DNA from: a phage
Length of the DNA: 44,086 bases
Strand: one strand, 5' to 3'
NCBI GenBank assembly: GCA_021132495.1
Contig: GCA_021132495.1_4335.1
The position numbers and the translations under genes are program-made. Shown here one piece after another: positions 1,694 to 27,285 of this stretch (positions are counted from its first letter, which is position 1; every line of letters starts with the position of its first letter). The notes under the pieces were generated by a model, which did no database searches, was not told the origin of the DNA, and was given only the letters and a program-made list of their open reading frames with translations.

Positions 1694-3942
1694 ATATTGT
1701 TTTTGCAACGCTGCGCAACACATTCGATAAAAACCCTGTAGCGCGTGAGATGCCTCTCGAGCAGTTTGTGGAGTATGTCTGCGATACATCGAAGCGTTTA
1801 TCCGTGGATCCGTCGTGGTCTAAGGAAGAGTACGACGCTGCCAAGATTAAGCAGAAAGCTATTGCGCCTGTTGGGGGTCGCCGTAAAAGCGCTATCCTGG
1901 AAGACAGTGTGGTTAAGTTCGATTTTGACCATCTCAACCGTACTCAGTACCGCGACCTTACCCGCAAATTCAAGAACGCACCGTTCTTCAATATTCTGCA
2001 TACAACGGCATCGCATCAGCATGTGTGTAAAAACGGTGATTACGCCTTCCGCGTTCTGGTTCCGGCTCGCACGCCGTTTAACTCTAACGACGCGTGGATG
2101 GTCCAACGGGCTATTTGTGCAGAGTTAGAAATAGATGAAGCCTTGCGTGACCACTGCACGGAAGACGGCAACCGCCTTATCTATCTACCACATAGAGAGT
2201 CAAAGATAACGGTTACAGAAGGGCGTGTTATCCGTGCCGAGCGGTACATCAAGAAAGCCGAAGAGATGGGGTTGAGTAAACGTGAAGTTAAGACACTTGC
2301 CGCCGATGAGTATGGGCTTAACGCTGATATAGCGCATTTCTGCGAAGCCGAGCTTGGCCTTGACGCTTTATCTTCCGGGCGCGGGTACGAAGTCCCATGC
2401 CCTAACGAACATCTGCATACAGGCAAAGGCTCCACAAGCATCATGCTTGATGGTAAAGAAGTGCGCTTTGTGTGCCAGCATACAAACAACGGCGCTTGCA
2501 CCGAGCTTAACCGCCGACAGCATTTGGCCCTGCGTATGTGCGGCCTGCCAGACGAGCTTAACGTAGACAAGCAACCTATCAGTATTAACAGCATTCGTGC
2601 GGCTCTGCCTGATTTACCGGATGAAGAGATTGAAGAACTGCACCGCACAGAGAACGAGGAGCCTGTAACTTGCACGCTGGAAGACCTTGAAGAAGAGGAC
2701 GAGTTACCAGAACCGGTAAAGGCTGATTTCGTCGTTGAGGGGTACATGCCGTCGGATTGTATCTGGGATATTGTCGGGGAATCCGGCACGTACAAATCAT
2801 TCTATACGCTGGGGATGATGTACCTGAGCGCCGCCGGGTACCGGTTTGCGGGGGCTGACACCCAACGTTGCCACCATTTCTATATTGACGGCGAGGGTGG
2901 TGCAGCTACACGAACACGTATTGATGCACTCGCGGCTAAATATGGCGAGGAAGGTAAAGATTATGTACATGTCATCGATATGGGCGAAATACTCGCTACG
3001 CATGGTGATAAAAAAATTCCAGCTCTAATCCGCAGGATGCGCGAAACCGCAGGGGATGAACCTATTGGCATGGTTGCCTTCGACACCCTTAACCAGACGC
3101 TGGCCCTGACGATTGATAAGTTCGACGAGAACAGTTCATCAACGGCAATCGGTATGGGTAAAGTTATCGCCATCCTGAAAGAAGTGCGCGATGCAACTAA
3201 AGCCGCTGTCGGTGTCGTTCACCATACTCCGAAGGGCGGAAAGAAAGCCCGCGGCAGTGGAGCATTGTATGCGGGTGTCGACGTGGAACTGACAATCGAA
3301 CGCGCTACCGACCGTCAGATAAACGTATACCACTCTAAATTTAAGCACGGTCCTCAACAGAAGACGGTTGGCATGGTACTGGAGTCTGTACAGTTCCGTG
3401 AAGCACCGCCGCCGAAAGAGTACCGCGCGGTTGAGTTCCTCGGTAGCACAGAGGAATACGGCACAATAGTAAACCTCGACCTGCCTGAGCCGCACAAGGC
3501 GCTTGTATTGATGCCGTGGGGCTTCGAGCCATTCAAGACCGACGAGGAGAAAGAGAGGGGAGAAGGGTTAACTAACGAAGGTAAACAAAATGTACGTAAA
3601 ACCATAGAGAACGCCGTCAACAGTTCCGAGGCCACGATACTCGCGGCGTTTGAACTGGCGGAGGGGACCTACAACGGCAACGAGGGCATCACGGTATCCG
3701 CAGCGAATAAGCTCGCGCAGTCTGACCCCAACGCAAAGGCGTTTAACTCCAAAGAAGCCATAGAACGCGGGAAGATTAAGAAAATGGTTGAGGCTGGGTA
3801 TCTTGTTCCGGGTACTGACGAAAACAATCAGATAATCCCAGGCCGTTACAGACTGAACACCATGATAACAGATAACAAGATTCCGAAGACAATATACGAA
3901 CCGAATGAAATGCTGACAGTGACCGAGGAGGATTTGGAATGA
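1690..3942 (+). CDS. replicative primase-helicase-like protein (RecA/DnaB-type P-loop ATPase, Zn-binding region)
   Basis: 750 aa; Walker A GESGTYKS; Cys/His cluster CPNEHLH...CQHTNNGAC; acidic C-terminus TEEDLE. Confidence 0.6.
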   Translation: MNIVFATLRNTFDKNPVAREMPLEQFVEYVCDTSKRLSVDPSWSKEEYDAAKIKQKAIAPVGGRRKSAILEDSVVKFDFDHLNRTQYRDLTRKFKNAPFFNILHTTASHQHVCKNGDYAFRVLVPARTPFNSNDAWMVQRAICAELEIDEALRDHCTEDGNRLIYLPHRESKITVTEGRVIRAERYIKKAEEMGLSKREVKTLAADEYGLNADIAHFCEAELGLDALSSGRGYEVPCPNEHLHTGKGSTSIMLDGKEVRFVCQHTNNGACTELNRRQHLALRMCGLPDELNVDKQPISINSIRAALPDLPDEEIEELHRTENEEPVTCTLEDLEEEDELPEPVKADFVVEGYMPSDCIWDIVGESGTYKSFYTLGMMYLSAAGYRFAGADTQRCHHFYIDGEGGAATRTRIDALAAKYGEEGKDYVHVIDMGEILATHGDKKIPALIRRMRETAGDEPIGMVAFDTLNQTLALTIDKFDENSSSTAIGMGKVIAILKEVRDATKAAVGVVHHTPKGGKKARGSGALYAGVDVELTIERATDRQINVYHSKFKHGPQQKTVGMVLESVQFREAPPPKEYRAVEFLGSTEEYGTIVNLDLPEPHKALVLMPWGFEPFKTDEEKERGEGLTNEGKQNVRKTIENAVNSSEATILAAFELAEGTYNGNEGITVSAANKLAQSDPNAKAFNSKEAIERGKIKKMVEAGYLVPGTDENNQIIPGRYRLNTMITDNKIPKTIYEPNEMLTVTEEDLE

Positions 3943-4253
3943 ATATTTACGATTTTATAGATAACCCGTTTAAAGCAGTGAAGGCAGGATACCGCCCGTC
4001 ATACCTGACATGTGTTTCCGCTGTAAGCAACAACTGGTGGACTTTTTGTGTGTATGCAGCGGGGATTTTTGCGGAGTTTAAAGACATTTTAGACATGACG
4101 CTGGCAGAGATTATAAAGTGCCTTTTCAAATTAATTATATCGATAACTATTGTTATAAGTTTTCCTGTAAGTGCGTGGTTTCTCGCCTGGATTCAGTACC
4201 TGAACGTGCAACACACTATTAAGAATTTGGAAGAACTCGATAAGTTGCTATAA
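3939..4253 (+). CDS. membrane protein (C-terminal hydrophobic segment)
   Basis: ORF track; ATGA overlap with the upstream gene. Confidence 0.5.
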   Translation: MNIYDFIDNPFKAVKAGYRPSYLTCVSAVSNNWWTFCVYAAGIFAEFKDILDMTLAEIIKCLFKLIISITIVISFPVSAWFLAWIQYLNVQHTIKNLEELDKLL

Positions 4254-4257
4254 AAAG

Positions 4258-4277
4258 AAAGGGGCTTTAAGCCCCTT
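4258..4277. terminator. bidirectional intrinsic terminator (aaggggct-tta-agcccctt)
   Basis: Perfect hairpin between convergent genes 3939..4253 (+) and 4267..4482 (-), A/T flanks. Confidence 0.6.
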
Positions 4278-4482
4278 CACCTAACGCCAGCCACTTGGCG
4301 TCTACTTCCAGAACTTCCGCCAGTTTGAACAGCGTTGCCGGGCGGACGTCCTGAGTTACTCCAAGTGCCAGTTGGTTAATCGCGCCCTGGGAAACGCCGG
4401 TCAGGGCCGCCAAACGGCGCTGGGAGATGCCGAGTTCTTTACGGCGTTGTTCTACACGGATACCTAGTTCAGATGGTTGCAT
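4267..4482 (-). CDS. XRE-family HTH transcriptional regulator (Cro/CI-like)
   Basis: 71 aa; motif ISQRRLAALTGVSQGAINQLALG; RBS aaggag; transcribed divergently from the early operon. Confidence 0.8.
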   Translation of the reverse strand: MQPSELGIRVEQRRKELGISQRRLAALTGVSQGAINQLALGVTQDVRPATLFKLAEVLEVDAKWLALGEGA

Positions 4483-4502
4483 GTCAATTACTCCTTAGTC
4501 AG

Positions 4503-4531
4503 TTGATATGTGAATAGTACCATATTAATTA
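4503..4531 (+). promoter_or_regulatory. weaker promoter-like element TTGATA-N17-TAATTA with palindrome half-site variant (AATAG-tacc-ATATT)
   Basis: In the divergent control region between the XRE gene and the gene at 4604. Confidence 0.35.
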
Positions 4532-4855: not shown

Positions 4856-5356
4856 ATGTTAGAGAAATTCTTAGTATTACTGGAACGTTTCGTAGTTGCG
4901 CATGAACTGATTGCTGCGAACAGTGCGAAACAAGTTGTTCAGGTTGCCACGCCGCTGGAAGTAGAGACGGTATCGTACACCAAAGAAGCGGTAGATGAGT
5001 GCGCTGAAGAAGCAACAAAAGAAATCCCGGTCGAGGGTGAAGACGTAGTTGACACTAAACCGGCGGAGGAAGAGAAGCCAAAACGCAAGCCGCGTAAAGC
5101 TAAAGTAGAGGAACCTGCGCCAGAACCGGAAGAAGAGAAAGAAGAAGTCGATTACAAGTCTCTGCGTGACCAGATTCAGGCCATCGACGATGCAATTAAT
5201 GAAGGTCCTAGCGATGCCGCGTGCGATGATTCTGATGAACTGCTGGAAGAGTTCACAGGTAAGAAGATGAAGATTGCCGCGATTAAAGACGAAGACCTGG
5301 TTGAGTACCTGGAACGCCTGACAGCAATCAAGAACAAGTATTTCGAAGAAGAATAA
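4856..5356 (+). CDS. acidic, Lys/Glu-rich hypothetical protein
   Basis: ORF track; low-complexity EEEKPKRKPRKAKVEEP region. Confidence 0.55.
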   Translation: MLEKFLVLLERFVVAHELIAANSAKQVVQVATPLEVETVSYTKEAVDECAEEATKEIPVEGEDVVDTKPAEEEKPKRKPRKAKVEEPAPEPEEEKEEVDYKSLRDQIQAIDDAINEGPSDAACDDSDELLEEFTGKKMKIAAIKDEDLVEYLERLTAIKNKYFEEE

Positions 5357-5363
5357 CTATCTC

Positions 5364-5385
5364 GCGGCCTTCGGGCCGCTTTAAC
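5364..5385 (+). terminator. candidate intrinsic terminator (gcggcc-ttcg-ggccgc + TTT)
   Basis: GC hairpin with short T run directly after the gene ending at 5356. Confidence 0.4.
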
Positions 5386-5399
5386 GGAGGGGCGGAAAT

Positions 5400-5672
5400 A
5401 TGATTTACCAACTCTACCGCGCCGTAGACAGGCGGGATAACACAGAGGCGTTGTGGCTGTTGCGTGCGCCGTCCGGTGCGCACCAGATGGAAGAGATGGC
5501 GTACTTAGGCAAAGTACCGCGTCCTAAAGATATAGGTCGTCACGTGTCGCGGATTAAACGCACGACATTCGCCAAGCCCGACTTTTATGTCTTCGAGTCG
5601 ATGTATGGATGGGCCTTACATTGCGACCACAAGACACGGCATTTAATTGACCAGTGGGAGAACAGAGCATGA
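5400..5672 (+). CDS. hypothetical protein (90 aa)
   Basis: ORF track; stop overlaps the next ATG. Confidence 0.45.
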   Translation: MIYQLYRAVDRRDNTEALWLLRAPSGAHQMEEMAYLGKVPRPKDIGRHVSRIKRTTFAKPDFYVFESMYGWALHCDHKTRHLIDQWENRA

Positions 5673-6910
5673 AACTAAAAGAACGAGGCGGCAATAATGA
5701 TGTACACGCCTTACTGTCACCGTCAGGCGCTAAAAAGTGGCTGTCATGCGCTGCGTCGCTGGCGTGTGAAAAAGATATCCCTAACACGTCGGGTAAAGCC
5801 GCTGTACTAGGAACCGCCATGCACACCATAGCTGAGGTCCATCTCAACGCCTATATACGCGGCACTGCGTTGCCGTTAGAGCGTGAAGTCGGCGCTTACG
5901 TACTGGATGAAGGCAAAGGTCAGATTAAGGCGCTAATCAGCCTGATGAAAGGCGCGGTACTGATTACGGCGGACATGATTGAGCAGGTGCGCAAGTACAC
6001 CGACTACTGCAAAGCGATTATAGACGTAGCGACTTACGCCAAGCTGGAAATGCGTGTCAATCTTACTGAGGTATTGCATCCGGGGTATGAAGGCGTTGAG
6101 ACGTTCGGAACCGCTGACCTCGTTGCTGTCCAGGAACTGGCAAACACCGACGAGCACATGCTCATTATCGGCGACCTGAAAACCGGGCGGCATCGCGTCG
6201 AAGCGAAAGAAAACAAGCAGCTTATGCTTTACGCTCTCGGTGTTTATCGTCGACTCAAGAGACGTTATAACATAACAACCGTTCGTCTGGTCATCTTCCA
6301 GCCTTACGCTGGGGGTGCGACAGAGTGGGACATCTCGGTTGAAGGACTGGAACTGTTCGCTAAGTTCGCACAGAAACGCGCGCTGTTAGCGCTTGATGCG
6401 TATTTCCGTGGCAAGAAGAACCTGAAAGCGTCGGACTTCAAGCCATCGGTAGATGGTTGTCAGTGGTGCCGGTTCTCTGAACAATGCGCTGCGCGTACAA
6501 AGACGGTTAATTCTGTACTGGCGGAAGAACTGGAAGACGACTTTGTGCTGGAACTGACGCCGGAGCAACTCGTAGCTGAGTATGAGAAGTTGCCGCTGTT
6601 GCGCCAGCACATCGACAAGGTTGAGAAAGCTATGGCGGCCGCGTTGCATTCAGGTAAGAAAGTTCCTGGTTACAAGTTGGTTGAAGGCCGCCCGGGCAAT
6701 CGTGCATGGAAAGACGCGGAGAAAGTAACAGAACTCTACGGCGACAAGCTGACTAAAGAAGTGCTCATGTCACCTACCGAAGCTGTTAAAGTCATACCGG
6801 AAGAAGAACTGAAAGACTTCATTACCCGTAAGCCAGGCGCACCATGTGTCGCAACGGCAGACGACAAACGTCCTGAGTGGAATCAGGTAACAGAGGAGGA
6901 TTTGGAATGA
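5669..6910 (+). CDS. PD-(D/E)XK exonuclease, Cas4/RecB-like, with C-terminal Cys cluster
   Basis: Motif GDLKTGRHRVEAKENKQLMLYAL (D..K..Q..Y); CQWCRFSEQC; start moved to ATG 5669 after RBS gggag; acidic C-terminus TEEDLE. Confidence 0.7.
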   Translation: MKLKERGGNNDVHALLSPSGAKKWLSCAASLACEKDIPNTSGKAAVLGTAMHTIAEVHLNAYIRGTALPLEREVGAYVLDEGKGQIKALISLMKGAVLITADMIEQVRKYTDYCKAIIDVATYAKLEMRVNLTEVLHPGYEGVETFGTADLVAVQELANTDEHMLIIGDLKTGRHRVEAKENKQLMLYALGVYRRLKRRYNITTVRLVIFQPYAGGATEWDISVEGLELFAKFAQKRALLALDAYFRGKKNLKASDFKPSVDGCQWCRFSEQCAARTKTVNSVLAEELEDDFVLELTPEQLVAEYEKLPLLRQHIDKVEKAMAAALHSGKKVPGYKLVEGRPGNRAWKDAEKVTELYGDKLTKEVLMSPTEAVKVIPEEELKDFITRKPGAPCVATADDKRPEWNQVTEEDLE

Positions 6911-7110
6911 TTCAAGTAAATGAAATGCCCACAGATAAAGATTTTGTGATGATATGGCGCTGGGGCGGTTATATCCATTCGGAATCGTTTACGTTCCTGA
7001 ACGGCACGATGGTGCGATACAACCATGTGGAGGATGAATTCGAACCCGTTGATATGAATGATTTCGAGAACATAGTCCGTATTGCGAAATTTTATTTGAC
7101 ACCTGAATAG
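6907..7110 (+). CDS. hypothetical protein (67 aa)
   Basis: ATG at 6907 after RBS gaggagga, overlapping the upstream stop. Confidence 0.45.
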   Translation: MIQVNEMPTDKDFVMIWRWGGYIHSESFTFLNGTMVRYNHVEDEFEPVDMNDFENIVRIAKFYLTPE

Positions 7111-7124
7111 TTAGCTATTATAGT
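7096..7124 (+). promoter_or_regulatory. sigma70 promoter TTGACA-N17-TATAGT with embedded palindrome AATAG-ttag-CTATT
   Basis: Same architecture as 4547-4575; upstream of the gene at 7184. Confidence 0.6.
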
Positions 7125-7183
7125 TCTAATCACTGACCGGGCAGCTTCCCGGAGTAAACGAAACTTAAAAGCGAGAAATTAAG

Positions 7184-7810
7184 ATGGGTATTAAACTGAA
7201 TCTGCGTAAAGTAAACACTGCTTGGGTTAACGTATTTGAACGTGAAAAAGACCGTGAAAACGATGATGGCTCAATCACTAAAGGCCAGTACAGCGCGACT
7301 ATCATCCTGCCGTCTGACCATGCTCAAATCGATGCGCTCTACGACACCGTTTACGCTGTAGTTGAAGAAGCGTTAGGCGCAGCCGCTGCCGAGAAATGGA
7401 TGAAGTCCAACTACGGTGAAGGTAAGCACATGGATAAATGCGCGATTAAAGACATTGCCGAGCGCGACAATCCGTTTGAAGACTTCCCGGAAGGCTTCTA
7501 CTTCAAAGCGAAGGCACAGAAACAGCCGCTGATTGTAACCTCTAAAAAAGGTGAGACTCAGGTAGAGCAGGACTTCAACGTAGACGGCGAACAGATTGAA
7601 GGTGAACAGGTTTACAGCGGATGCTTAGCTAACGTAAGCGTTGAAATCTGGTTCAGCCAGAAATACAAAGTCCTCGGCGTTAACCTGCTGGCGATTAAAT
7701 ACGTTGGCGAAGGCAAAGCGTTCGGCGGTTCTAAAGTCGCTGCGAGCGTCAATGACCTGGAAGACGACGAAGAAGATGAAGCACCGCGCCGCGAACGTCG
7801 CCGCCGCTAA
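7184..7810 (+). CDS. putative ssDNA-binding protein with acidic C-terminal tail
   Basis: 208 aa, directly upstream of the DNA polymerase; C-terminal DLEDDEEDE; assignment by position and composition only. Confidence 0.4.
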   Translation: MGIKLNLRKVNTAWVNVFEREKDRENDDGSITKGQYSATIILPSDHAQIDALYDTVYAVVEEALGAAAAEKWMKSNYGEGKHMDKCAIKDIAERDNPFEDFPEGFYFKAKAQKQPLIVTSKKGETQVEQDFNVDGEQIEGEQVYSGCLANVSVEIWFSQKYKVLGVNLLAIKYVGEGKAFGGSKVAASVNDLEDDEEDEAPRRERRRR

Positions 7811-10936: not shown

Positions 10937-11022
10937 AAATCTACTGGTTTTATGAAGAAGACTGTCGAATCTGTCCGCGCTGCGGTACTGAACATACGAA
11001 ACGTGAGGGGTGTGTATTATGA
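10933..11022 (+). CDS. small CxxC peptide (29 aa)
   Basis: Manual ORF MKIYWFYEEDCRICPRCG...; ATGA overlaps on both sides. Confidence 0.25.
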   Translation: MKIYWFYEEDCRICPRCGTEHTKREGCVL

Positions 11023-11516
11023 AAGCACCAAGTGACGATATAAAAGATTTTCTGTCATACGACCCGGATACCGGGATATTTAAATGGGTCAAGCACAGAT
11101 GCCAGACCGCGAAACCCGGAGATGTTGTTACATACAAGGACCGTAAAGGGTACATATTGTTAGGATGGAGTAGGGTGTATTACCGCGCACACAGGCTGGC
11201 GTGGTGGTGGGTGTACGGAGAGATGCCAACTAAGCAAATAGACCATATTAACGGCATACGGGACGATAACCGGATTTGTAACCTACGGCTTGCGGATGAA
11301 TTTCAACAGAACCATAACCGCAAGACCCCAGTTACGAACACCAGCGGCGTGAAAGGGGTTAACTGGAGTAAGCCTCATAATGCTTGGTGTGCTCGAGTTG
11401 CTTTTAAAGGTACACGCTATCAGATTGGGTATTTCCAGAACCTAAATGAAGCAGAGGAATCCCTGAGAGAATTTAGGGCAAAACTGCACGGAGAGTTTTG
11501 CAACCATGGCGACTAA
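11019..11516 (+). CDS. HNH endonuclease with AP2 DNA-binding domain
   Basis: HNH motif IDHINGIRDDNRICNLRLADEFQQNHNRK; AP2-like GVKGVNWSKPHNAWCARVAFKGTRYQIGYF; ATG at 11019 after RBS gagggg. Confidence 0.8.
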   Translation: MKAPSDDIKDFLSYDPDTGIFKWVKHRCQTAKPGDVVTYKDRKGYILLGWSRVYYRAHRLAWWWVYGEMPTKQIDHINGIRDDNRICNLRLADEFQQNHNRKTPVTNTSGVKGVNWSKPHNAWCARVAFKGTRYQIGYFQNLNEAEESLREFRAKLHGEFCNHGD

Positions 11517-23091: not shown

Positions 23092-23508
23092 CTACTTTTC
23101 CTGCAATTGGTGAAGCTGTTCGTTGTGGAAAACAACAACGTGTTCAGCGAGGCGTTTATATTGTGAAAAAAGAGTATTCAGGTTCTCTTTATTAAATTCA
23201 TCGTCGAGACTCCAACCGTTAACCAGTTCAAGTGCTAACTGGCGGTTAAGGTCCGTCGCGGCGTCTTCCATCTTAATGTTATATTCCGAGAAATCTTTCA
23301 GTTCCTCGCATTTATCACGAAGCGGCTTCAGTTTACCTAACGACGCGCGGTACGCCAGGGTAAATGCACGCATGGCTTTAACCGCAACGTCTGCCTCCGG
23401 TGAAACAACGTTCAGCCACTCCCCTGAATCGGTGCCGTCTTTCAGTGGGATCGGCATACGGGCGCCTTTTTCTGCCTCAGCTTCGTAATAAAAATCAGAA
23501 AGTTTCAT
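23092..23508 (-). CDS. tail assembly chaperone (G-like)
   Basis: 138 aa acidic protein immediately upstream of the TMP. Confidence 0.5.
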   Translation of the reverse strand: MKLSDFYYEAEAEKGARMPIPLKDGTDSGEWLNVVSPEADVAVKAMRAFTLAYRASLGKLKPLRDKCEELKDFSEYNIKMEDAATDLNRQLALELVNGWSLDDEFNKENLNTLFSQYKRLAEHVVVFHNEQLHQLQEK

Positions 23509-23615
23509 TCTTTAATCCTTTGGTTAAGAGGTTACGGGTTAAGGTTAATGCGCCAGACGGGAACCACCCGCTTTTCGTGTGCGACACTAGGCGCAAAATT
23601 ATTCTATCACATTAC

Positions 23616-23644
23616 TTGCACACCCCAATATAATAGTGTACTAT
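23616..23644 (+). promoter_or_regulatory. sigma70-like promoter TTGCAC-N17-TACTAT with palindrome AATAG-tgta-CTATT
   Basis: Near-identical to motifs at 660-688 (minus) and 33233-33261; about 40 nt upstream of the cassette. Confidence 0.5.
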
Positions 23645-23685
23645 TCACTTACACCAACGATGTTATCCCAAACAGGAGCTACACC

Positions 23686-23877
23686 ATGACGGGTATTACT
23701 ATGTTCTTCTTAATCATTATCGTTTTAGTTTATTTTATTCCATTTCTCGTGGCGCATATGCGCGACCATAAAGCGAAATTAGCGATATTCATGGCTAATC
23801 TGTTTCTTGGATGGGTTCTGCTGCCGTGGGTATTTATTTTAATCTGGGCTTGCAACTCGAATGTCAAAGAGAAGTGA
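23686..23877 (+). CDS. superinfection-immunity-like small membrane protein
   Basis: Two TM segments; motif ANLFLGWVLLPWVFILIWA recalls the Imm_superinfect signature; RBS caggag before ATG 23686. Confidence 0.65.
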   Translation: MTGITMFFLIIIVLVYFIPFLVAHMRDHKAKLAIFMANLFLGWVLLPWVFILIWACNSNVKEK

Positions 23878-23914
23878 GCTAGTATAGGACAAATCCTAAG
23901 CACGAGGAATAAAC

Positions 23915-25045
23915 ATGGCCCGGAAGAAAATAACCGACGAACAGTTGCAGGAAGAATTGAACGCCGGTATGAAGAATGTAGATATCGCCCGTAAATACGG
24001 CATCTCAGACCGCGTAATTCGTATCCGTAAAGCGAAGCTGGCTAAGAAAGGCGTGGGCCACGGGCGCGACGTTAGCCACCTTGTGCCAGACGGCTACAAG
24101 ATTAAAGGAACGTCGTCACTTGTGGACGAGTTCGGCAACACTAAGTTGCAATGGATTAAGACTGATACCGACGCCGAACGTCAGGTTGAATTGATGAAAG
24201 CCGTAATAGAGGGCATGAAGTCAGAGATTACGCCCGTTGCGCCTGTTAAAGCGGCGCGCGCCAAACGTGACGACAAGCTACTCAATCTTTACACTGTATC
24301 TGATTTCCATCTCGGTATGCTGGCATGGGCCGATGAGAGCGGCGACGACTGGGACATGAAGATTGCAGAAGACCTGTTCTCTCGGTGGTTCGACGCGGCG
24401 TTTCAGAAAGCACCGGATGCAGGAACAGGAGTTATTAACCTGCTTGGGGACTTCGCACACTTCGATAGTCTTGATGCCGTTACCCCCGAGTCGCGCCATG
24501 TATTAAATGCGGATACTCGCTATCAGAAACTGGTACGTTACATGATTCGTATGGTCCGCCGTGTTGTTGATATGGCGCTGGTTAAGCATCACACAGTAAA
24601 ACTTTTAATCGTTCAAGGTAACCACGACCCTGTTGGCTCCGTATGGCTTGCCGAAATGTTCACGGTTTTATACTCAAACGACAGCCGAGTGATTGTTGAT
24701 ACGTCGCCGGATGTTTACAAGATGGTGCAACACGGCAAAACGACGCTGTTCTTCCATCACGGGCATAAAGCACGATTCGACGCTATCGAACCGGTTATGA
24801 TTGCCAAGTTCCGTAAAGCGTTCGGCGAGAGTGTTTACAGCTACGCCCACGTAGGCCATCTGCACCACCAGAAGATTGTAGAAAGCCGTAACATGATTGT
24901 TGAGCAACACCGCACCTTAGCGGCTAAAGACGCCTACGCCTCTCGCGGCGGATGGATGTCGGGCCGCAGTGCAAATGTAATTACTTATAGCGCCGAATAT
25001 GGCGAGGTCGCACGTTTAACTATTTCACCGGAGATGCTGGGATGA
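23915..25045 (+). CDS. calcineurin-like metallophosphoesterase with N-terminal HTH domain
   Basis: Motifs DFHLG, GDFAHFD, GNHD, HHGH, GHLHH in canonical order; N-terminal VDIARKYGISDRVIRIRKAKL. Confidence 0.7.
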   Translation: MARKKITDEQLQEELNAGMKNVDIARKYGISDRVIRIRKAKLAKKGVGHGRDVSHLVPDGYKIKGTSSLVDEFGNTKLQWIKTDTDAERQVELMKAVIEGMKSEITPVAPVKAARAKRDDKLLNLYTVSDFHLGMLAWADESGDDWDMKIAEDLFSRWFDAAFQKAPDAGTGVINLLGDFAHFDSLDAVTPESRHVLNADTRYQKLVRYMIRMVRRVVDMALVKHHTVKLLIVQGNHDPVGSVWLAEMFTVLYSNDSRVIVDTSPDVYKMVQHGKTTLFFHHGHKARFDAIEPVMIAKFRKAFGESVYSYAHVGHLHHQKIVESRNMIVEQHRTLAAKDAYASRGGWMSGRSANVITYSAEYGEVARLTISPEMLG

Positions 25046-25530
25046 AAGATATTGTAATTTTCGATTTAGACGGGACATTGGCCGACGGTACCCATCGCTT
25101 ACACCTGTTACCAAAAGATAACTACGGAGAAACGTGGGCGTGGAAGCCATTTAACATGGCCTGCAAAGATGACACTCCGATATACGACAATATCCATTTG
25201 TGTAGCGTACTGTGGCATTCCGGACTTACTATAATTATCCTTACCGGGCGAAGTGATGACGCTGAGGAGGAGACTCGCGAATGGTTACGAGAGAATAACG
25301 TTAGGTTTGACACGCTAATCATGCGCAGCAAACACGACAACAGAAAAGACATCGTAATTAAAGAAGAGGTGTTGCGTGCTTTCGGACTGGAAAGAATCTT
25401 GTGTGCGTTCGACGACTCTCCAGCGGTAATAAAGCATTTCCGTGACCTCGGCATAACCGCACACGCAGTTACCGAATACGACTGTAACGGGAACTCTACA
25501 CACTTAAAACCACACGGGAGCGATAAATAA
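25042..25530 (+). CDS. HAD-superfamily phosphatase resembling the T4 Pnk 3'-phosphatase domain
   Basis: Motif I FDLDGTL, motif II ILTGRS, RKDIVIKEEV and AFDDSP; recalled similarity to the T4 polynucleotide kinase phosphatase half. Confidence 0.7.
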   Translation: MKDIVIFDLDGTLADGTHRLHLLPKDNYGETWAWKPFNMACKDDTPIYDNIHLCSVLWHSGLTIIILTGRSDDAEEETREWLRENNVRFDTLIMRSKHDNRKDIVIKEEVLRAFGLERILCAFDDSPAVIKHFRDLGITAHAVTEYDCNGNSTHLKPHGSDK

Positions 25531-26084
25531 TGGCTAAGGTAATTATTCTTAATGGCCCTGCGGGTTGCGGGAAAGACACGCTTGCTATGGCGCTGGTAGA
25601 AATGGGCTTTGCGAAAGGAACTACCAGTTTCAAGAATCCAATGTTCAATATTGCTTTGGCAGCGTTAGGCCAGGATGCTTACCACGAATTTCTCGACGGC
25701 TACGACGACCGGGCGCGGAAAGAAAAACCCGAGGGTTTTCTTAATGGGTTGTCCCGCCGCCGGTTAATGATTGCCATTTCTGAGCAATTCATTAAACCGG
25801 TATTCGGCGATGATTATTTCGGTAAGTATCTTGCTGAAAACTTGCCTGACGGCGACGAAGTTTTTGTAGTGTCCGATGGTGGATTCGCCAGTGAAGTTGC
25901 CCCTATCGTCGCCGCGGGGCATGACGTGCGAATCGTCCGCCTCCATCGTGACGGCTATACGTTCATCGGCGATAGCCGTGGCTATCTGTACGATGTTAGT
26001 GGTGTAAAAGATTACGACACCTACATCATACCGGGTGACGTTAAATCGAACGTTATAGACATTGCTTTAAAATTAGGTTTGTAA
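25530..26084 (+). CDS. P-loop nucleotide/polynucleotide kinase (T4 dNMP-kinase-like GKDT Walker A)
   Basis: N-terminal ILNGPAGCGKDT; 184 aa; coupled to the HAD gene (TAATG overlap). Confidence 0.6.
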   Translation: MAKVIILNGPAGCGKDTLAMALVEMGFAKGTTSFKNPMFNIALAALGQDAYHEFLDGYDDRARKEKPEGFLNGLSRRRLMIAISEQFIKPVFGDDYFGKYLAENLPDGDEVFVVSDGGFASEVAPIVAAGHDVRIVRLHRDGYTFIGDSRGYLYDVSGVKDYDTYIIPGDVKSNVIDIALKLGL

Positions 26085-26086
26085 GA

Positions 26087-26109
26087 AAAAGGCCCCGAAA
26101 GGGGCCTTA
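26087..26109. terminator. bidirectional terminator (aaggcccc-gaaa-ggggcctt)
   Basis: Perfect hairpin between the cassette end and the convergent tail gene. Confidence 0.6.
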
Positions 26110-26112
26110 GTT

Positions 26113-27285
26113 TTATGCGTAGGTGATACGTTGAATTACGATAGACGACTGGTACTGATTGCCGGTAGCCTGGCCTTCAATGGACTGAGTGATTGACTCA
26201 GGCCCACCAATCTCAGGTGTAACCGCCGTAAGCTCTGCACGTTTCAAACTGAAAGACATAGCCCCGTTTACCCCTGCCAGAATAGAGTTAATCTCTACCT
26301 GCTGCTCGTTGATAAACTTCTGAATCATCGCCATGTCATACAGCTTACCGGAGATGGAGAAGGTGTTAGCTGCACGGCTACGCTCCACAAACGCTACGTT
26401 AGTGTTACCAAGTTCGAACTGCGCGGACGCGCTGTTATCGTTGGTGATGGTGAGAGTATCGCAACGCAACGGCGTGGAGCCATCGAACACCGACACATCT
26501 ACCGACGAGAACGGCTCATCGGTGAACGTAACCTGAGAGAAATCAGAGCCAGACGGCGGCGCGGTAAGAATCTCCTGACTCAGGCCGATGAACGGGAAGC
26601 TGCCGGTGACCATGGCGTTAACCGCCTGCTCTACGGTAAAGCCAGAGATTTCCACACCTTTGGTCAGCATGTACGCGTCCGGGTTACCACACTGGCCCTT
26701 GAACCACGTCAGGATGGAGAACGTCTTACACGCGTTACCGGTTTCCAGCTTGTCGCCAGTTTTTGCGTCAGTGGTTACTGTCTCTGCCGTTAGTGTGTGT
26801 TGAATGCCTGCACCCGTAACTACAAGAGCAGAAACCTCGGTCACGATAAACGGTTTTGCGTTGTCGCCGGTTAAGTCGGTGAACGCAATCAGGTCGCCAA
26901 CTTCTACACCGTCAGTAATGAAGCTACCGGCAGCGCGGGTGAATGTTTTACCTGCTGGGGCGACCGTAATTTCGGCGCCAGTAATCTCTACCCCAGCTTT
27001 CCACGTAGAAGTCATCGCTCCCGCAAGGAAATCATCCTGGCTACGAGAGCTAAGTTCGATGGCATACTCCCCGCTAACCTGCTTGTTACCGGTTCGGATG
27101 GATGTAGTTTCACGGCTGCCGTCCAGTTCGTTGGAAGTCAGTGCATCGCGGGTTACAGCGGGAACGCCACCCGTGTTACGCAACGGCGACCATACCGGGT
27201 TAGCCGGTGTTACGCCAGGGGTAGTTTCCGCCACATAGAATTGCGCGGTATTCGCGCCCTTAAAAGGAGTTGTAGCCATATTCAC
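26113..27285 (-). CDS. major tail protein (by position)
   Basis: 390 aa, Thr/Gly/Val-rich, last large gene before the chaperone pair. Confidence 0.5.
   Translation of the reverse strand: MNMATTPFKGANTAQFYVAETTPGVTPANPVWSPLRNTGGVPAVTRDALTSNELDGSRETTSIRTGNKQVSGEYAIELSSRSQDDFLAGAMTSTWKAGVEITGAEITVAPAGKTFTRAAGSFITDGVEVGDLIAFTDLTGDNAKPFIVTEVSALVVTGAGIQHTLTAETVTTDAKTGDKLETGNACKTFSILTWFKGQCGNPDAYMLTKGVEISGFTVEQAVNAMVTGSFPFIGLSQEILTAPPSGSDFSQVTFTDEPFSSVDVSVFDGSTPLRCDTLTITNDNSASAQFELGNTNVAFVERSRAANTFSISGKLYDMAMIQKFINEQQVEINSILAGVNGAMSFSLKRAELTAVTPEIGGPESITQSIEGQATGNQYQSSIVIQRITYA

Follow-up and report, generated by a model that had tools for sequence, protein, structure and literature searches.

A four-gene cassette in the tail module of a Kagunavirus probably combines a superinfection-immunity gene with a trio of enzymes for deoxynucleotide and DNA salvage, whose substrates would be DNA and deoxynucleotides, not broken RNA. 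It is an already catalogued accessory operon of Kagunaviruses, and its enzyme trio is common to T1-like phages. The window, by which we mean the whole 44,086-nucleotide stretch analyzed, comes from a phage genome with 99.9% identity to one GenBank phage. Four co-oriented plus-strand genes (23686-26084) interrupt its minus-strand tail genes. A first-pass annotation, made from the sequence alone, had set these genes between a promoter and a bidirectional terminator and had called them an Imm-like protein, a metallophosphoesterase (MPE), a HAD phosphatase and a P-loop kinase; the open reading frames, flanks and terminator were upheld, and all four domain calls hold in Pfam and PHROG profile searches.

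23092-23508, minus strand: tail assembly chaperone, flanking the cassette
23616-23644, plus strand: sigma-70-like cassette promoter, TTGCAC-N17-TACTAT, read from the sequence and from conservation
23686-23877, plus strand: Imm-like small membrane protein, 63 aa, with two hydrophobic helices (PF14373, phrog_1039, hydropathy)
23915-25045, plus strand: HTH, beta-hairpin and metallophosphoesterase, 376 aa (database label 'DNA repair exonuclease')
25042-25530, plus strand: stand-alone Pnkp-type HAD phosphatase, 162 aa (PF25109, phrog_415, hhalign)
25530-26084, plus strand: T4 gp1-type deoxynucleoside monophosphate kinase (DNK), 184 aa (phrog_139, hhalign, identity to R1DNK)
26089-26108, called on both strands: bidirectional intrinsic terminator, common to the cassette (plus) and the major tail gene (minus)
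26113-27285, minus strand: major tail/tube protein, flanking the cassette

The promoter matches the consensus at only 8 of 12 positions and was missed by a promoter scan, but it is conserved: in alignment A5 its Jerseyvirus counterpart reads TTGCGY-17-TATTAT, with TTGC of the -35 and TAnTAT of the -10 invariant across Kagunavirus and Jerseyvirus. An overlapping promoter that the scan did call (ATCACA-17-TATAAT, 23606-23634, 10/12) is not kept across the genera in the same alignment, and we rejected it. At the other end, the terminator has a GC stem of 8 bp, T-runs on both strands and fold z-scores of -4.3 (plus) and -3.9 (minus), and many Jerseyviruses share a 34-nt exact match (100%) around it. 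A conserved intergenic block at 23545-23580 probably forms no RNA structure (z = -0.4 and -1.4). Recent horizontal acquisition was rejected on composition, with a GC content of 0.46-0.51 in the cassette and 0.503 in the genome. The MPE stop codon overlaps the HAD start as ATGA, and the HAD stop overlaps the kinase start as TAATG. As we picture it, the cassette would be an accessory operon occupying the same point of the tail module in every Guernseyvirinae phage, driven by a host-type promoter and closed by a terminator that also ends major-tail transcription, and it would hold two functionally separate things, the Imm-like protein and three translationally coupled enzymes.

Neither the gene combination nor its site proved to be new, as had been supposed. 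The same four genes stand at the same site in 53 GenBank records, dozens of records carry an annotation of the cassette, and the trio recurs in Drexlerviridae, where it has been noted (PMC13164509). In that study an 'exonuclease' persists in 508 of 522 Drexlerviridae, the next-commonest genes are a PNK and a dNMP kinase, and a nucleotide-supply role is proposed. Comparison of related genomes at the tail locus, which had been suggested as a way to find the cassette absent, gave a split answer: the Imm and MPE genes are near-constant in Guernseyvirinae, but of 318 matching records only 53 have the HAD-kinase pair, so the slot is variable and the cassette is not universally conserved. The pair is patchy among otherwise near-identical Kagunaviruses, and BASEL phages that lack it exist (Bas72). 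Our literature searches turned up no study of the cassette's function in Guernseyvirinae, and an NCBIfam scan of the cassette returned nothing that reached a curated cut-off.

The closest comparison is with Escherichia phage Rao1, whose gp56, gp57 and gp58 (R1DNK) share 43% (E 2e-106), 50% (E 5e-53) and 49% (E 2e-60) identity with the MPE, HAD and kinase, respectively. The same three proteins, in the same order and orientation, form a block in Rao1, Webervirus and other Drexlerviridae, and likewise in Klebsiella phage 1513. In Drexlerviridae the block has replication genes on one side and holin/endolysin genes on the other, whereas here the trio is inside the tail module, on the strand opposite to its neighbors and behind an Imm-like gene, in a unit that has a promoter to itself but shares its terminator.

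The kinase is, by its sequence, a T4 gp1-type dNMP kinase and not a polynucleotide kinase, and the activity has been measured in orthologues. It matches the dNMP kinase family phrog_139 at 1e-44 (T4 gp1 does so at 1.8e-65), and its family profile (A4) aligns in 176 columns with residues 1-238 of T4 gp1 (hhalign 93.1%, E 3.3e-7), whereas alignment with T4 Pnkp is confined to the 25-column P-loop. Together with the identity to R1DNK, this overturns the role that the first-pass annotation preferred for it, the 5'-kinase of an end-healing module. The Walker A motif GxxGKDT is present as G-P-A-G-C-G-K-D-T at residues 9-17, and all 77 family members keep G14, K15 and D16. Pfam PF21448 (DNMK), which T4 gp1 matches at 3e-107, gave no match to the kinase at E <= 0.1, which places our protein in a divergent subfamily. 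PDB sequences searched with the kinase alone and with its family profile yielded P-loop matches only (1dek, E 0.02).

Among the three enzymes the kinase alone has experimental support, which comes from orthologues. R1DNK accepts dAMP, dGMP, dCMP and dTMP, its K15A mutant is inactive, and its deletion lowers dATP (bioRxiv 10.1101/2024.12.20.629578). The same study found that R1DNK triggers the Kongming defense, as do the DNKs of the same subfamily from KarlJaspers and from Webervirus VAC2, the latter also 49% identical to our kinase. It reported no fitness cost of a Rao1 dnk deletion in the laboratory; salvage is therefore dispensable there.

The HAD protein is a genuine Pnkp-type HAD and may have 3'-phosphatase activity; its proposed similarity to the 3'-phosphatase half of T4 Pnkp was borne out. 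It matches PF25109 (HAD_PNKP) at 2.2e-20 (73.7 bits, cut-off 27.6) over profile positions 2-140 of 143, matches phrog_415 at 3.7e-64, and shares 129 aligned columns with the phosphatase domain of T4 Pnkp (hhalign 97.4%, E 1e-11). D8, D10, R19, T68 and R70 align with T4 D165, D167, R176, S211 and R213, and D103, K107, D124 and D125 with T4 D254, K258, D277 and D278. The nucleophile motif DxDxT is present (D8-L-D10-G-T12), and all positions of the essential catalytic set of T4 Pnkp, which we take to be R176, S211, R213, D254, K258, D277 and D278, are invariant in alignment A3. The closest solved structures are the RNA-repair protein Pnkp1 (4xrp, 3e-6) and T4 Pnkp.

This kinship is an argument for the counter-defense by RNA (tRNA) end healing that the first-pass annotation favored, in which the HAD would remove 3'-phosphates, the MPE would open 2',3'-cyclic phosphates and the kinase would phosphorylate 5'-OH ends, with host ligase resealing the cuts made by anticodon nucleases or ribotoxins. 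The reported healing of cyclic phosphates by the metallophosphoesterase of CthPnkp (PMC2190708) also speaks for it. We nonetheless consider it very improbable. The kinase is of the gp1 type, with dNMP activity proven in orthologues, and the HAD has no PNK-type polynucleotide 5'-kinase as partner. As the earlier annotation had itself remarked, there is no ligase: searches for RNR, ThyA, ligase and PNK found none in the phage genome, a ligase domain is absent from the ten large plus-strand ORFs of the replication module, and the close relatives K-02 and 22664BS2 carry no ligase annotation. In addition, the MPE is not of CthPnkp's lambda-phosphatase type, with no such matches near the top of its fold search, and it is near-core in about 2,000 phages, most of which are without the HAD and kinase. 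The annotation's alternative, a nucleotide-pool remodeling unit, is the reading that our evidence favors.

That the HAD and the kinase are coupled is indicated by the stop/start overlaps of the operon and by natural single-chain HAD_PNKP-DNK fusion proteins (P0292 and P0334). Because a shared 5'-dNMP substrate in such a fusion would create a futile cycle, the substrate of the HAD must differ from the 5'-dNMP of the kinase. T4 Pnkp (PseT) is alike in that its phosphatase domain is homologous to the HAD, which here adjoins a kinase and is fused to it in some relatives; it differs in that its kinase comes from another P-loop family than the gp1-type mononucleotide kinase of the cassette, in that the natural fusions have the reverse domain order (HAD, then kinase), and in that the cassette has no RNA ligase partner. 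In podoviruses the HAD has an MPE on one side and, on the other, a dATP/dGTP diphosphohydrolase (PF18909), which is again a nucleotide-pool enzyme. MPE-HAD adjacency is seen in three phage families, and the MPE of PP16 is non-orthologous.

The other instructive comparison is T5, where Dmp, a HAD of PHROG 415 like ours (T5 Dmp matches phrog_415 at 3.6e-57), is paired with Dnk, a dNMP kinase of PHROG 139; by analogy, both pairs may work on the dNMPs that the breakdown of host DNA sets free. Dmp is, however, distant from our HAD. The HAD family (A3) aligns with the Dmp alignment A6 (T5, Bas26 and VPG01) over 136 columns (hhalign 85.5%, E 5.7e-6), which is weaker than with T4 Pnkp. It had been anticipated that membership of the two proteins in dNMP-kinase and 5'-nucleotidase families would count against end healing; this placement was found for the kinase and only half so for the HAD, which is Pnkp-type with a weaker likeness to Dmp. 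The HAD's closer relation to the polynucleotide 3'-phosphatase of T4 Pnkp than to the T5 5'-dNMPase also speaks against the salvage reading.

T5 Dmp is expressed pre-early, apart from Dnk, and blocks Kongming. This raises an explanation by anti-defense through nucleotide manipulation: the HAD would deplete dAMP, as T5 Dmp does, and thereby keep the kinase of its own phage from setting off Kongming-type dITP signaling, and/or the MPE would degrade cyclic-nucleotide immune messengers. The shared PHROG, the whole-domain alignment with Dmp and the co-occurrence of Dmps with DNKs, T5-type Dmps being Kongming blockers, are consistent with this, as is the top Foldseek match of the MPE, the cNMP phosphodiesterase Rv0805. 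But Rao1 is Kongming-sensitive despite carrying the orthologous gp57 beside its DNK, and its infection raises dAMP 2-3-fold (bioRxiv 10.1101/2024.12.20.629578); unlike T5 Dmp, the Rao1 HAD does not protect its phage, which is rescued only by T5 Dmp supplied in trans. PADLOC models gave no matches for any of the four cassette proteins, and an MPE found in 508 of 522 Drexlerviridae (PMC13164509) is too persistent for a typical anti-defense accessory. We regard this explanation as quite unlikely.

The MPE carries an N-terminal HTH and intact motifs, as first described. It matches phrog_704 at 1e-161, and 74 sequences show no change in any of the five dinuclear-metal motifs of metallophosphoesterases (D130/H132, D179/H182, N236/H237, H282/H284 and H315/H317). 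Homologue searches with the single sequence and with a six-sequence profile brought up nothing below 91% identity; the diversity that AlphaFold modeling calls for came from a search seeded with a sparsely sampled Rhodobacter phage homologue. The HTH-MPE family is present in about 2,000 phage genomes, mostly without the HAD and kinase, and therefore need not work with them. In sequence and profile searches against PDB sequences only the HTH was matched. T5 A1 was considered as a relative and rejected (26% probability, 17 columns, a different PHROG).

The motifs DxHLG, GDxxH, GNHD and GHxH match the pattern of Mre11/SbcD. The MPE could accordingly be read as an HTH-targeted Mre11/SbcD-like exonuclease and the HAD as a DNA 3'-phosphatase, together cleaning blocked 3'-phosphate ends of replicating or recombining phage DNA or of host DNA under degradation, with the kinase a neighboring nucleotide-supply gene. 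The invariance of those motifs fits, as do the retention in the HAD of every catalytic residue of the T4 Pnkp phosphatase and an MPE-HAD adjacency that persists even with the non-orthologous MPE of PP16. Yet neither this genome nor its relatives show a Rad50/SbcC partner, whether next to the MPE or in their annotation, and the fold-search ranking of the MPE is flat and includes non-nucleases. Moreover, the natural fusion partner of the HAD is a mononucleotide kinase, not the MPE, and the third podovirus gene is again a free-nucleotide enzyme. We think DNA-end processing of this kind unlikely.

The first gene of the cassette stands apart from the trio. The Imm-like protein belongs to the T4 Imm family, would sit in the inner membrane and, judging from that membership, most likely blocks DNA entry of superinfecting phages. 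It matches PF14373 (Imm_superinfect) at 9.5e-14 (51.5 bits, cut-off 27.9) and phrog_1039 at 1.6e-23, and in relatives it is labeled a superinfection immunity protein. Hydropathy places its hydrophobic spans at residues ~4-24 and 33-56. The likeness to T4 Imm is that of a small two-helix membrane protein passing the Pfam threshold; T4 Imm has 83 aa and the cassette protein is shorter, at 63 aa. Its start is preceded by a ribosome-binding site (AGGAG, 7 nt upstream); a mechanically called ORF beginning at 23548 starts too far upstream and is too long. In some Jerseyviruses an unrelated 109-aa secreted protein occupies this position. One RNA-seq study grouped the Imm gene as 'late' with the DNA polymerase and methylases (PMC12645636), and the literature searched held no experiment on any Guernseyvirinae Imm.

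We favor the salvage reading, in which the kinase would convert 5'-dNMPs to dNDPs, and host Ndk would carry these to dNTPs for phage replication. The HTH-MPE would bind DNA through its HTH and cleave phosphodiester bonds of DNA or nucleotides, thereby providing substrate or processing it, and the HAD would clear away phosphates of no use to the kinase (those at the 3' ends of DNA, 3'-dNMPs, bisphosphates) or, alternatively, trim the dNMP pool. The phage itself encodes neither ribonucleotide reductase nor thymidylate synthase. The HAD-kinase pair is optional equipment, and it would carry a cost because its kinase family triggers Kongming. A bacterial defense module, PUA-Calcineurin-CE-HAD, offers an analogy, in that it sets a calcineurin-type phosphoesterase and a HAD phosphatase on deoxynucleotides, where they run a joint dNTP>dNDP>dNMP cascade (PMC12871103); a MazG-type enzyme can replace the partner, as in podovirus versions. 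Unlike the phage trio, this module is host-encoded, forms a sensor-coupled filament and depletes dNTPs.

A bolder form of salvage, which we put forward only tentatively and hold to be improbable, would make the HAD and gp1-type kinase, with the P0292 and P0334 fusions, a mononucleotide-level counterpart of Pnkp and the HTH-MPE its feeding nuclease. The HAD would strip 3'-phosphates (3'-dNMPs, pdNp, 3'-P ends) from host DNA breakdown and the kinase would then drive the resulting 5'-dNMPs to dNDPs, an undescribed three-step salvage line from host DNA to dNDP in small siphoviruses.

As a catalogued feature whose trio T1-like phages share, the cassette itself carries little weight. Two database labels are misleading, 'polynucleotide kinase', given to a protein that is only a phosphatase, and 'DNA repair exonuclease', given to a phosphoesterase in about 2,000 phage genomes, and they thereby invite an RNA-repair reading. 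The natural phosphatase-kinase fusions are one fresh lead, a concrete handle on the function of the stand-alone Pnkp-type phosphatase. The kinase exposes its carrier to Kongming defense, and because it is visible to that system, the patchy presence of the HAD-kinase pair in near-identical Kagunaviruses provides a natural test of the costs and benefits of nucleotide salvage to a phage.

The window is a nearly complete Kagunavirus genome (Guernseyvirinae). In a DNA search of phage records, positions 23400-26300 shared 99.9% identity with Escherichia phage vB_EcoS-22664BS2, and 318 records had a DNA-level match to this stretch. The first-pass annotation had described four co-oriented plus-strand ORFs set between minus-strand tail genes, and every particular of that observation was borne out:

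23092-23508, minus strand, tail assembly chaperone (cassette flank)
23616-23644, plus strand, promoter TTGCAC-17-TACTAT, as first read from the sequence
23686-23877, plus strand, Imm-like protein (63 aa; AGGAG ribosome-binding site)
23915-25045, plus strand, HTH-metallophosphoesterase (MPE; 376 aa)
25042-25530, plus strand, HAD phosphatase (162 aa)
25530-26084, plus strand, P-loop kinase (184 aa)
26089-26108, both strands, bidirectional terminator, called on each strand
26113-27285, minus strand, major tail/tube gene (cassette flank)

Stop-to-start overlaps (ATGA and TAATG) join the MPE, HAD, and kinase genes, which suggests translational coupling of the three enzymes. The composition of the cassette gave no indication of recent import.

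The cassette had been read as an RNA end-healing counter-defence module or, alternatively, as a nucleotide-pool remodelling unit. The kinase had nothing above cut-off against Pfam and matched phrog_139 at 1e-44, a family that also includes the T4 dNMP kinase gp1 (1.8e-65). We searched 1.84 billion representatives and built a family profile of 77 kinase sequences; its alignment with T4 gp1 was full-length (93%, E 3e-7, 176 columns), and that with T4 Pnkp covered the 25-column P-loop only. Using sequences from a bioRxiv supplement, we found the window kinase to be 49% identical both to R1DNK, the gp58 protein of phage Rao1 (E 2e-60), and to the DNK of Webervirus VAC2. R1DNK acts on dAMP, dGMP, dCMP, and dTMP, with K15A abolishing activity, and its deletion lowers dATP at no laboratory fitness cost; R1DNK is also the trigger of Kongming (KomABC), a dITP-signalling defence, which the VAC2 DNK sets off as well (bioRxiv 10.1101/2024.12.20.629578). 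Judged by these comparisons, the window enzyme belongs with the dNMP kinases and not with the polynucleotide kinases, and the nucleotide-pool alternative holds, as do the original domain calls. End healing does not, given the P-loop-only match to Pnkp and our failure to find a ligase or a PNK-type kinase in the phage genome (replication-module ORFs and relatives' annotation), where ribonucleotide reductase and thymidylate synthase were not found either. The dNMP kinase gene of T4 (gene 1; 650-1375 of the fetched T4 locus) likewise lies among tail and structural genes, flanked on one side by 57A, for a tail fibre chaperone, and on the other by gene 3, whose annotation is tail sheath stabilizer/terminator.

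The HAD protein, as first proposed, belongs to HAD_PNKP (PF25109, 2e-20). Its closest solved structures are Pnkp1 and T4 Pnkp, and it aligned with the T4 Pnkp phosphatase domain by hhalign (97.4%, E 1e-11, 129 columns) with all catalytic residues kept. Among the representatives searched for the kinase profile, we also identified two natural single chains, P0292 (403 aa) and P0334 (461 aa), in which an N-terminal HAD_PNKP domain is joined to a C-terminal gp1-type dNMP kinase, with the linker motif 'GPELHG' common to both. Their layout resembles that of Pnkp, but with a mononucleotide kinase and the reverse domain order; the literature searched held no mention of such a fusion. If both domains of such a fusion acted on the same 5'-dNMP, the pairing would be futile, and a 3'-phosphate or other specificity that does not overlap with the kinase is therefore more plausible for the HAD protein. 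By this argument, the earlier idea of a 3'-phosphatase remains alive for DNA or deoxynucleotides, but not for RNA. A role as a dAMP-depleting anti-Kongming factor, like the T5 5'-deoxyribonucleotidase Dmp, is unlikely, because T5-type Dmps are only distant relatives and because Rao1, which carries an orthologous HAD, is still Kongming-sensitive and accumulates dAMP.

The first-pass annotation had not recognised this gene combination or site as described, a claim that did not survive comparison with other phages. In Rao1, gp56 is orthologous to the window MPE (43%, E 2e-106), gp57 to the HAD (50%, E 5e-53), and gp58 to the kinase, in the same order, with replication genes on one side of the block and the holin on the other; Klebsiella phage 1513 is arranged like Rao1. 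PNK and dNMP kinase are the commonest genes immediately after the Drexlerviridae 'exonuclease', and were proposed to extend the replication module and boost nucleotide supply (PMC13164509). The MPE-HAD-kinase trio is thus a known recurrent block. MPE homologues occur far more widely than the trio (2,037 phage records, including Dhillonvirus, Vibrio, Rhodobacter, and Campylobacter phages and one podovirus), and HAD and kinase homologues occur in 2,525 and 1,531 records. In two podoviruses, HAD_PNKP has an MPE on one side and a dATP/dGTP diphosphohydrolase (PF18909) on the other:

4995-7386 of the Escherichia phage altidsur locus, MPE - HAD_PNKP - PF18909 block, MPE orthologous to that of the window
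2518-4531 of the Pectobacterium phage PP16 locus, MPE - HAD_PNKP - PF18909 block, MPE non-orthologous

This combination therefore seems to have come together on at least two occasions. T5 A1 (1709-3376 of its fetched locus), which is needed for host DNA degradation, shared only 'NHDxxxSxWL' with the MPE family; hhalign gave 26% over 17 columns, a weak lead and no evidence of homology.

Gene content at this slot varies: only 53 records had all four genes, the same number as had a kinase at least 80% identical, whereas 285 had an MPE at least 80% identical. The Kagunaviruses fFiEco03, fBC-Eco01, Sciku, Bas72, and ZCEC5 carry Imm and MPE, with small ORFs or an HNH endonuclease after them. Jerseyviruses carry MPE and a 76-aa ORF, preceded by Imm or an unrelated 109-aa secreted protein, and some have HNH and Ant/Rha genes in addition. 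Besides the HNH genes found at the slot in some of these phages, there is an HNH_3 ORF (PF13392, 2.5e-12; 11010-11516, plus strand) in the window's replication module, probably a homing endonuclease.

The Imm-like protein passed the PF14373 cut-off (9.5e-14), in line with the original domain call, matched phrog_1039, and has two hydrophobic helices. From family membership alone, the best-supported reading is that it would be an Imm-type exclusion protein. In Salmonella phage vB_SenS_ER1 (3109-3438 of the fetched locus), the slot's first gene instead encodes a protein of 109 aa whose N-terminus resembles a signal peptide and which matched nothing in Pfam.

The promoter matches consensus weakly, and its -35 and -10 positions are kept between Kagunavirus and Jerseyvirus; a stronger-looking tool-called candidate lacked conservation. 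At 23520-23633 and 23548-23685 (plus strand), relatives' annotation has a 114-nt ORF or a 109-aa extended form of the Imm ORF; both overlap this conserved promoter and are probably annotation artefacts. The fold of the terminator is far more stable than that of shuffled controls (z -4.3 on the plus strand, -3.9 on the minus), and the 34 nt around it (26082-26115) recur with 100% identity in dozens of Salmonella Jerseyviruses, where they are the sole DNA-level match to our 2.9-kb query. The intergenic block GCGCCAGACGGGAACCACCCGCTTTTCGTGTGCGAC (23545-23580), present once in the window, is near-invariant between Kagunavirus and Jerseyvirus; it yielded no significant fold and no sigma-70-like minus-strand promoter call. 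The chaperone and tape-measure genes lie past the cassette and its bidirectional terminator along the minus-strand late transcript, and the block may be a restart promoter or regulator site for them.

The best-supported reading of the three enzymes is a deoxynucleotide/DNA-salvage trio. Its kinase step is one that orthologues have been shown to carry out, and we infer the MPE and HAD steps. A bacterial calcineurin-type phosphoesterase and HAD act as a cascade on dNTPs, a precedent for such pairs acting on free nucleotides (PMC12871103). We conclude that the cassette is an already known genomic feature, with the family of one component experimentally characterised.
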